This document shows positions 6,411-8,489 of a DNA stretch of 10,782 bases, in pieces (position 1 is the stretch's first letter; each line of letters begins with the position of its first letter). The stretch is from UHGV virus genome UHGV-0072853. The stretch is one strand, 5' to 3'. A model generated the notes under the pieces. The model ran no database searches. It saw only the letters and a program-made list of their open reading frames with translations, and had not been told where the DNA came from. The position numbers were made by a program, and so were the translations under genes. The stretch comes from a virus.

Positions 6411-7059
6411 TGGCAGCAAATACCGAAATATTTGGGTAGTTGGCGATCTGCACGGATGCTACACGAACCTGATGAAAAAACTGGAGACGATAGGATTCGA
6501 CACCAAAAAAGACCTGCTTATCTCGGTTGGCGATTTGGTCGATCGCGGTACAGAGAACGTCGAATGTCTGGAATTAATCACATTCCCCTGGTTCCGAGCT
6601 GTACGTGGAAACCATGAGCAAATGATGATTGATGGCTTATCAGATCGTGGAAACGTCAATCACTGGCTGCTTAATGGCGGTGGCTGGTTCTTCAATCTCG
6701 ATTACGACAAAGAAATTCTGGCTAAAGCTCTTGCCCATAAAGCAGATGAACTTCCGTTAATCATTGAACTGGTGAGCAAAGGTAAAAAATATGTCATCTG
6801 CCACGCCGATTATCCTTGTGACGAATACGAGTTTGGAAAGCCAGTTGATCATCAGCAGGTAATCTGGAACCGCGAACGAATCAGCAACTCACAAGACGGG
6901 ATCGTGAAAGAAATCAAAGGAGCGGACACGTTCATCTTTGGTCATACGCCAGCAGTGAAACCACTCAAGTTTGCCAACCAGATGTATATCGATACCGGCG
7001 CAGTGTTCTGCGGAAACCTCACATTGATTCAGGTACAGGGAGAAGGCGCATGGGCATAA
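6388..7059 (+). CDS. ninI: Ser/Thr protein phosphatase, lambda NinI (PPase) type (223 aa)
   Basis: [38 protein letters not shown]...GDLVDRG...RGNHE: the calcineurin-like metallophosphatase motifs GDxHG, GDxxDRG and GNHE, as in lambda protein phosphatase. ATG at 6388 is inside the supplied longer ORF 6313..7059. Confidence 0.88.
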
Positions 7060-7568
7060 GAGAACTAAACCTCACCAAAGAGCAGCACGAGTGGCTGAAT
7101 GGCTGGCTTGAACTGTGGGGCGCATGGGTTTATTCAGGTCGTCTGGAAAAGCGCATGAGCAGCGTAATAGCGAAGTTCATGGAGAGCGTAGAGCCGGGAA
7201 GAGTTATGACAAGGCCAATGTGCAATGATGATGATGGAATGTTGATTTCTCAGGTCGTCGATTCCGTCATGTACATTGACAAGAAAGCCTTTGGCATCCT
7301 CCTCAGCTACTACGCTCATGGTTCATCTAAGCGAGCAATTGCATCCTACTATCACGCGACTGCAAAGCCACGCAAGATGTGTGGACGTGGTGGCGATGGA
7401 TGGAGAAAACCTTCACTGGCAACCTGTAGAAACGAAATTGACGACATCCTGAAAGCGTCGTTATTTGTTTTGTACCAACCAATGCAAAATGCTTTTAAAA
7501 TGCGTAAACGTGTTGAGAAAGTTAAGCATGTTGCTGTTAAAAGCCTTGACATGCAATTATCCATTTAG
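7050..7568 (+). CDS. Q: Late-gene antiterminator Q, QuuD / 933W / phage 21 family (172 aa)
   Basis: Located between ninI and the lysis cassette. Shares the pattern W-x-x-WGAW ... C-x-DDD-x-M-I ... YY-x-x-G with Q proteins of this family as I remember them (for example E. coli QuuD). Cys/His-rich. The ATG overlaps the ninI stop. Confidence 0.7.
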
Positions 7569-7575
7569 CCATAAT
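7546..7575 (+). promoter_or_regulatory. PR'-like late promoter
   Basis: TTGACA at 7546..7551 and CATAAT at 7570..7575 (18-bp spacer) at the 3' end of Q, upstream of a terminator hairpin: the expected layout for the Q-modified late promoter. Confidence 0.5.
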
Positions 7576-7585
7576 TAGAAGGTAA

Positions 7586-7627
7586 GCTGCCGTTAGTGAC
7601 TCTTAAGTTGCAACGGTGGCTTTTTTT
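7586..7627 (+). terminator. tR'-like intrinsic terminator
   Basis: Imperfect 9-bp stem (GCTGCCGTT / AACGGTGGC, two G-U pairs) with a 17-nt loop, immediately followed by a run of seven T (7621..7627). This would give a short PR' transcript unless Q acts. Confidence 0.55.
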
Positions 7628-8145
7628 GTTTGCACAACAGGTAAGAGCATTGAACCCGCAGACCTCGCGGAATTGGTGAAAGGTGCCGCGCAGTGCTCTT
7701 ATCGTTGTGGTGAATACGCAGGCTGATGCGTTAATCAGGTGAACGAGATACCCGCCGGTCCGTGATATGGCACACCGTGCCGGTCATATCTGCCGCGGTT
7801 AGGTTTACGAGGATTTCGTAAAGCTGGTCTAGGGTGAAGCCGTGAAAGCGGAGGAAGTAAAACGAGGCGTCGGTACACGCCTATCGTCATTAAGTCGGAG
7901 TTCAGCACCGACCGCCACAACCCAAACTGAGCCGTAGCCACTGGCTATCCTGAATTCATCAGTGATAGTTACGCTGCGGCCTTCTACACATGATCTTCGT
8001 GAAAGCGGGTGGCAAGAGGCTGCGCTAACAACCCCCTGCCGTTTTGCCCGTGCATATCGGTCACGAACAAATCTGATTACTAAACACAGTAGCCTGGATT
8101 TGTTCTATCAGTAATCGACCTTATTCCTAATTAAATAGAGCAAAT

Positions 8146-8159
8146 CCCCTTATTGGGGG
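8146..8159 (+). promoter_or_regulatory. Stem-loop CCCC-TTATT-GGGGG upstream of the S dual start (sdi-like)
   Basis: Perfect 4 to 5-bp G/C stem overlapping the S Shine-Dalgarno region, 7 nt upstream of the Met1-Lys2-Met3 dual start, as in lambda S translational control. Confidence 0.5.
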
Positions 8160-8165
8160 TAAGAC

Positions 8166-8489
8166 ATGAAGATGCCAGAAAAACATGACCTGTTAGCCGC
8201 CATTCTCGCGGCAAAGGAACAAGGCATCGGGGCAATCCTTGCGTTTGCAATGGCGTACCTTCGCGGCAGATATAATGGCGGTGCGTTTACAAAAACAGTA
8301 ATCGACGCAACGATGTGCGCCATTATCGCCTGGTTCATTCGTGACCTTCTCGACTTCGCCGGACTAAGTAGCAATCTCGCTTATATAACGAGCGTGTTCA
8401 TCGGCTACATCGGTACTGACTCGATTGGTTCGCTTATCAAACGCTTCGCTGCTAAAAAAGCCGGAGTAGAAGATGGTGGAAATCAATAA
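8166..8489 (+). CDS. S: Holin S, class I, lambda type (107 aa; antiholin S107 from Met1, holin S105 from Met3)
   Basis: [107 protein letters not shown] matches lambda S in my memory, including the MKM dual start. Confidence 0.9.

Follow-up and report, generated by a model that had tools for sequence, protein, structure and literature searches.

Escherichia coli RNase III cuts duplexes of about 19–21 bp with little sequence specificity. It processes the rRNA stalks and the mRNAs of phage T7, and acts on the tRNA precursors of phage T4 and on the E. coli tmRNA precursor. In phage lambda, RNase III processing sites in the late (PR') transcript were reportedly described by Daniels, Subbarao, Blattner and Lozeron in 1988 (Virology 167:568); these sites would share a position class with the hairpin considered here, both belonging to the late leader made under the control of Q. 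This hairpin, found in a stretch of 10,782 nucleotides of the virus genome UHGV-0072853 (the window), consists of a helix, below called the clamp, and an enclosed insert, its cargo. Like the rRNA stalks and the RNase III hairpins of T7 early mRNA, the clamp is an imperfect helix of ~20 bp that flanks structured RNA in a polycistronic transcript. In contrast to them, its cargo is tiny (13–170 nt) and hypervariable, and one clamp sequence is reused both within and between phages. Few regulatory regions have been studied as much as the lambda late leader, yet its hairpin after the tR' terminator has no Rfam family, and the clamp family appears to be unclassified.

Other described elements share features with parts of the locus. 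STnc100 (RF02076) has been linked to the PasD prophage sRNAs, which are found near Q and holin/lysozyme genes (Zhu, Shabalina, Storz 2026, bioRxiv 10.64898/2026.05.13.724894). STnc100/PasD RNAs resemble the module at 7704–7921, immediately 3' of the hairpin (domain B), in their layout, which runs from GGUGAAU and a 5' hairpin through a variable centre to a 3' hairpin and a CACC that closes on the 5' end, but these families do not include the clamp hairpin. YrlA (Y-RNA-like) and tRNA-like RNAs have in common with the clamp family a long terminal stem, a tRNA-like domain and the placement of units in tRNA arrays, whereas the YrlA model does not match clamp units and the window insert has no T-arm. 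Integron attC sites offer an analogy only: they, too, combine imperfect inverted repeats, a conserved fold, extrahelical bases, a variable centre and cassette boundaries. However, attC functions as single-stranded DNA with the IntI integrase and has RYYYAAC/GTTRRRY cores, which the CACAAC/GTTGTGG of the clamp does not fit, and the co-orientation of clamp units with tRNA genes and their placement after terminators point to RNA.

Setting and geometry of the hairpin

The window contains the late-control region of a P22-like/lambdoid phage, with a Q–S interval that shows 98% identity to phage CUS-3 by BLAST. On the plus strand, the Q gene (7050–7568, PF06530 match) overlaps at its end with the late promoter PR' (7546–7575), found by a promoter scan as TTGACA, an 18-nt spacer and CATAAT (11/12 match). 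It is followed by the intrinsic terminator tR' (7585–7628), read from the sequence as a stem (7585–7594 / 7612–7621) and a subsequent T-run. In the record of phage HK75, both pR' and a terminator Tr' are annotated at the homologous places. The Q and tR' of the window are of the P22/21 type, unlike those of lambda. The holin gene S, which starts at 8166, is of the lambda type. The tR' terminator ends 5 nt 5' of the lower stem of the hairpin, and from this position on the plus strand, between PR'/tR' and S, the hairpin would be transcribed as part of the late RNA. No ORF of at least 40 aa covers it, and the sole ORF of this size in the Q–S interval (7735–7941, minus strand) has no Pfam match.

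The sequence-only reading had described a 13-bp stem with two G-U pairs around a loop of ~35 nt. Its left arm, GGTAAGAGCATTG, is found exactly where it was placed (7640–7652), and all 13 positions pair, the two G-U pairs of the plus strand being G7641–U7702 and U7650–G7693, which are C-A mismatches on the minus strand. The right arm, CAGTGCTCTTATC, lies at 7691–7703, 3 nt away from the 7688–7700 given for it, and the loop measures 38 nt (7653–7690). A lower helix had been overlooked: CACAAC (7633–7638) pairs with GTTGTG (7704–7709) and extends the stem across the bulged A7639 to 19 bp. A CCGC/GCGG mini-hairpin within the loop is possible judging by the letters, as is an alternative pairing of CGCGG with CCGCG. 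The RNA fold of the plus strand has an energy of −28.4 kcal/mol (z = −3.3; 1/200 shuffles as good), compared with −22.2 kcal/mol (z = −1.8) for the minus strand. The notion that such a structure is unlikely by chance in 600 bp was overstated for the 13 bp alone, since 5.7% of 300 dinucleotide shuffles of 7569–8165 (597 nt; G-U allowed, loop of 3–60 nt) reach 13 bp. The chance argument is therefore weak, and the real evidence is conservation.

The GTTGTG strand at 7704–7709 doubles as the first six bases of the closing helix of domain B (7704–7712 with 7913–7921). As it can also pair with CCACAAC at 7915–7921, the lower helix and the domain-B closure exclude each other, and the MFE fold of 7625–7935 picks the latter. 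Processing could switch between these two states.

Several identities for the hairpin were considered and rejected. It is not an intrinsic terminator: the stem is followed by GGTGAATACG, with no U-run, and the terminator scan was blank at the hairpin. As to a tRNA or tRNA-like gene, ARAGORN found 0 genes in the window, and a T-arm scan found no TTCRANN T-arm hairpin in the insert. A tmRNA (ssrA) was likewise dismissed, as the window has no tag-like frame and the tmRNA mode of ARAGORN was blank both in the window and in all loci. The AgvB/AsxR anti-sRNAs, 51–60-nt convergent sRNAs (Tree et al. 2014), were brought up by the CA-rich CACAAC; they have a different conserved 3' part and gave no Rfam match. 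Rfam searches yielded no relevant family with the complete window (E up to 1), and no match, STnc100 included, with 7560–8170 (E up to 10). Of 25 RefSeq E. coli matches with PGAP annotation, taken as a spread sample, 0 have a feature annotated over the hairpin, and the literature searched by text for the arm sequences contained no mention of the hairpin.

Conservation and covariation of the stem

The sequence-only reading had pointed to similar arms in lambda, and this holds: lambda 44787–44862, directly after tR' (the 6S terminator), has arms identical to those of the window around a different 38-nt insert. The DLP12 prophage of K-12, in which a copy might have been covered by published RNase III maps, was checked as well and contains no copy of the clamp. 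A BLAST search with the Q–S interval showed that 7633–7730 recurs in phages otherwise unrelated to the window phage. Inspection of the loci has shown that CACAACAGGTAAGAGCATTG and CAGTGCTCTTWCCGTTGTG bracket inserts unrelated in sequence and length, and that clamp units are often arranged in tandem, with a second conserved module between them. More than 100 phage contigs have the same clamp around unrelated inserts of 13–170 nt; a left-arm scan of IMG/VR identified at least 120 contigs and at least 114 distinct units with inserts of ~30–160 nt. Over 60 inserts without relation to one another are flanked by arms that hardly vary. The clamp is not specific to lambdoid phages, and its stem encloses a hypervariable insert, both of which had escaped the sequence-only reading.

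Where the arms do vary, they do so in a compensatory manner, as in GGTAAGGGTA/TACCCTTACC in P1 and in the pairs GATAATGGCA/TGCCATTATC, GTTGAGAACACTG/CAGTGTTCTCAAC and GGTAAATCAA/TTGGTTTATC. So as not to select on the stem itself, a second scan was anchored on the motif 3' of it, GRTGAATRCRYAGGCTGATRYG. In 85 of 117 distinct contexts, a long-range stem abuts this anchor, formed by the 22–23 nt just upstream of it and a partner located farther upstream. These 85 stem-forming contexts fall into 27 sequence clusters, many of them without likeness to the window arms; the near-invariant arm sequence is present in 39 of the 85.

In a spliced alignment of 35 diverse members, which leans towards pairing because its arms were located by duplex search, 78.6% of cells pair, compared with 38–48% when the partners are slid by 1–3 columns. 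The covariation score is 0.657, compared with 0.16–0.22, and the observed values are reached in 0/500 shuffles; given how the arms were chosen, the slid-partner control and the shuffled-arm z-scores are the fairer measures. The six basal pairs are paired in 94–100% of these members, and five of the six show 4–12 double changes. The register with a bulged A, as in the window, is found in about one third of the members, and in the others the helix is continuous. Hence the covariation that the sequence-only reading had proposed to look for is present, pairing being kept through compensatory changes and in ~27 unrelated stem sequences.

The distribution of G-U pairs points to the strand. Duplex energy favours the plus strand in 73 and the minus strand in 11 of 84 informative cases (Wilcoxon p ~1e-11), which indicates an RNA structure on the strand of the late transcript rather than a DNA palindrome. 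All tRNA genes located within 500 nt of a unit (60/60) are co-oriented with it. Among 125 distinct contexts with the common arms, 41 have the unit at most 14 nt downstream of a T-run, as in the window and lambda, 10 have its start at most 8 nt from a tRNA 3' end, three have the unit abutting a tRNA 5' end, and 87 have GRUGAA 3' of the stem. Arms kept in lambda and many other phages, covarying pairing and a better fold on the plus strand bear out the suggestion of a conserved structured RNA. The clamp hairpin is a real, selected RNA stem, homologous to that of lambda.

In the prophage-like contig L016 (6790–6880 and 7030–7183), the end of one clamp unit coincides with the first base of tRNA-Arg(UCU), and a second clamp with the arms CATGAAAGCGCACCC / GGAGTGCGCTTCCAGGTG is situated ~200 nt upstream. 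The first arrangement shows a clamp in the role of a pre-tRNA 5' leader.

A candidate processing stem and its alternatives

For a conserved helix of ~19–20 bp within a polycistronic transcript, RNase III processing is the most economical function. Our main reading, to which we assign a probability of about one half, is by analogy with rRNA stalks and T7 mRNAs: in late transcripts that read through tR', the hairpin would be a processing stem of the RNase III type. The clamp would form only in late transcripts carried through tR' by Q, as a ~19-bp dsRNA (6 bp, a bulged A and 13 bp) bracketing the 38-nt insert. Its cutting by the host RNase III would detach the PR'–tR' leader from the remainder of the late RNA, free the 38-nt insert and leave the module 7704–7921 at the new 5' end. 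What the data show is the structure with its conservation, covariation, strand and position; cutting by RNase III and any effect on late-gene expression are inferred. The element is a single copy of a cassette of modular build, in which a clamp helix, conserved in pairing and free in sequence, surrounds variable cargo; many enterobacterial and environmental phages chain such cassettes with tRNA genes and other stable-RNA modules, in the manner of the rRNA processing stalks. If the hairpin is an RNase III site, its conservation across different Q and terminator types would mean that cutting the leader off the read-through RNA matters to the phage.

RNase III substrates extend over about two helical turns (~20 bp) of mostly Watson-Crick dsRNA, with small bulges or internal loops tolerated, and the enzyme makes a staggered cut in both strands with 2-nt 3' overhangs. 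The stem of the window has 19 bp, and MFE folds of whole units (cargo of 24–175 nt) give an outer helix with a main mode of 16–21 bp, some members being perfect duplexes of 19–21 bp. Helix length shows no positive correlation with cargo size (r = −0.40). That the stem is present in RNA of the sense strand is consistent with the strand bias (73:11), the orientation of tRNAs (60:0) and the position of the hairpin. On the other side, the stem of the window contains a bulge and two G-U pairs, and 19 bp is at the lower edge for RNase III. In a model in which GTTGTG closes domain B, just the 13-bp upper helix would be left. Just 3' of the stem there is a conserved single-stranded GAAU that looks like a site for RNase E, so cleavage may be due to a different nuclease. 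The near-invariance of the arms may come from horizontal spread in recent times or from a partner that recognises their sequence, the latter being unexplained by RNase III. The lambda tR' hairpin is itself a long irregular stem; hence the RNase III sites said to have been found in 1988 could be in that hairpin instead of the clamp.

A possible but doubtful alternative is that the clamp is a structural insulator and no target of RNase III, joining the ends of a module so that each module of an array folds independently. RNase E would then cut the units apart at GAAU, a task that would fall to RNase P or exonucleases beside tRNAs, and the functional part would be the cargo, as a small regulatory RNA or tRNA mimic. 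Consistent with this, each array module (the hairpin, domain B, tRNAs) is closed by its own helix, GRUGAA follows the stem in most contexts (87/125), and stand-alone copies of domain B look like terminator-bounded sRNAs. Moreover, ~10% of the inserts have a T-arm-like hairpin, with a stem of 5 bp and the loop TTCRANN, directly beside an arm; in background segments, the frequency of such hairpins is 0.3%. However, an insulator needs no ~18–20 bp, and yet the helix length clusters there; perfect 19–21-bp members would be cut by RNase III anyway; and the 38-nt cargo of the window has no recognisable motif and too little variation to show selection.

The unit could also be an evolutionary leftover, a conserved linker for swaps of RNA or moron cassettes between phages by homologous recombination, which descends from functional tRNA/tmRNA-like cassettes and contributes little to the late expression of the window phage. 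One insert was found with different downstream flanks and identical arms with unrelated inserts, so junctions fall at the arms. The unit is replaced in BTP1 and P22-type relatives by tRNA-Asn and tRNA-Thr, which occupy the same place after tR', and HK75 keeps the hairpin and differs in the sequence downstream. The record of CUS-3 contains a boundary sequence, bsq4 (1501–1564 of our locus L001; window 7569–7632), that ends at the base before the clamp unit, which places the clamp at a recognised mosaic junction; another boundary sequence of this record, bsq3, covers the S-proximal 240 bp. Nevertheless, we consider this reading improbable: recombination linkers need identity and not pairing, whereas here pairing with a G-U strand bias is kept in ~27 unrelated stems, and the exact match of the arms in lambda argues for purifying selection. 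Least credible of all is a protein-binding palindrome on double-stranded DNA, the other option raised in the sequence-only reading, although an inverted repeat within a regulatory interval, with arms whose sequence many enterobacterial phages strongly conserve, would suit it. A dsDNA operator is expected to have conserved half-sites at a fixed spacing, while the arms are separated by 13 to ~170 nt and occur elsewhere as ~27 unrelated sequences with pairing preserved. In addition, G-T pairs are tolerated on one strand only, and a base is bulged on one side.

Domain B and the array family

In the window, domain B extends on the plus strand from ~7704/7709 to 7921 and was delimited by recurrent ends and covarying stems. 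It comprises the 5' motif GGTGAAT (7709–7715), hairpin 1 with the loop GGCTGA (7716–7731), a variable centre, hairpin 2 with the loop AGTTCAGCA (7894–7912) and the closing strand CGCCACAAC (7913–7921), which pairs onto GTTGTGGTG. The 5' part (GRUGAAU and a hairpin) and the 3' part (a hairpin and CAYC) recur in more than 100 viral contigs. The family layout is G[GA]UGAAU, a hairpin with the loop GGCUGAU, a variable region of 40–200 nt, a hairpin with the loop AGAUCAGCA, and CA[CU]C, which pairs with the 5' G[GA]UG to close the module. Covariation is seen in the stems of both hairpins and between GAUG and CAUC. The two loops are complementary (GCUGAU/AUCAGC; GCUGA/UCAGC in the window) and may kiss; as the loop of hairpin 1 was invariable in the search pattern, this complementarity is read from sequence and not from covariation. 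The STnc100 model aligns only to a P1 copy of domain B, below threshold (33.9 bits, cutoff 47). Some copies stand alone between terminators and look like sRNA genes.

Inside domain B, on the minus strand at 7865–7882, there is a terminator-like hairpin, AGGCGTGTACCGACGCCT, followed by the T-run CGTTTTACTT. An antisense RNA might terminate there, by analogy with the convergent sRNAs that EHEC prophages reportedly have downstream of PR'. The window (7730–7747) and P1 (1020–1037 of locus L005) share the related string TTAAYCAGRTGAACGAGA in different positions. Another small module, a hairpin with the conserved loop GUGAUUAAUAA, is located upstream of clamp units at 1386–1408 of locus L004 and at ~1365–1392 of locus L006.

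Clamp units also form arrays with a module that contains a 10-codon SsrA-like frame and a stop-codon hairpin. BLAST found this tag module in 326 phage records; they comprise Klebsiella, Salmonella and Escherichia phages with genomes of ~155–160 kb, 45–48 kb and 70–74 kb, and at least one HK97-like phage. Besides P1, phages of the Vi1-like, T1-like and N4-like kinds have the module, as do some lambda-like phages, where it comes right after tR' and one clamp unit. While the SsrA tag of E. coli is ANDENYALAA, the phage frames read ANDDLMMVAA, ANEEMYLAVA, ANDDVVLMAA and ANDEQFLAVA (each followed by a stop codon), and there are further variants. Copies were located in P1 (830–908 of L005), in Klebsiella phage BUCT610 (1243–1331 of L004) and in a lambda-like contig (~900–1012 of L019). 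In the latter, the order is lambda tR', a clamp unit and the tag module, the unit thus having the position of the window hairpin. Rfam tmRNA models align to the tag frame and the stop-codon hairpin below threshold; at the tag-module loci, ARAGORN made no tmRNA call and no convincing alanine-type tRNA-like domain was found. The tag module is absent from the window, and the related loci hold the tag module only and no full tmRNA. A 2014 census listed phage ssrA in mycobacteriophages and Bacillus phage G only.

We tentatively suggest that the hairpin is one slot of an unclassified, horizontally mobile cassette system of phage stable RNAs, with a clamp of ~18–20 bp and hypervariable cargo. In such a system, clamps would be chained with tRNA genes, an STnc100/PasD-like module of kissing hairpins and the tmRNA-like 10-codon tag module. 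If so, the lambdoid Q–S leader would be a docking site for RNA cargo, the cargo would act on host translation, ribosome rescue or tRNA-directed defence, and the clamp would be a signal for processing or exchange that the cassettes have in common. Hundreds of phage RNA arrays (tRNAs, STnc100/PasD-like sRNAs, the tag module) are organised by this clamp, and understanding it would help to explain the packaging, processing and exchange of small RNAs by phages.

The S leader of the window, which is lambda-like, contains two inverted repeats. One, at 8096–8108 / 8135–8147, has 13-nt arms with 92% complementarity and a gap of 26 nt; the other, a perfect 9-mer repeat at 8065–8073 / 8097–8105, overlaps with it. 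Both share the segment GATTTGTTC, so the two pairings would be alternatives just upstream of the start of S.

In P1, the arrays lie in the leader of the C1-controlled ban operon, and the small CDSs plp and upl are annotated on the opposite strand of the RNA arrays (1173–1742 of our locus L228, NC_005856). Similarly, a run of ORFs of 31–72 aa is annotated over the RNA arrays of phage Magnus (492–2948 of L006). The plp/upl genes and the mini-ORFs of Magnus overlap with clamp and domain-B structures that are conserved, and they may have been overpredicted; knowledge of the clamp would mark such small "hypothetical protein" calls over arrays as suspect.
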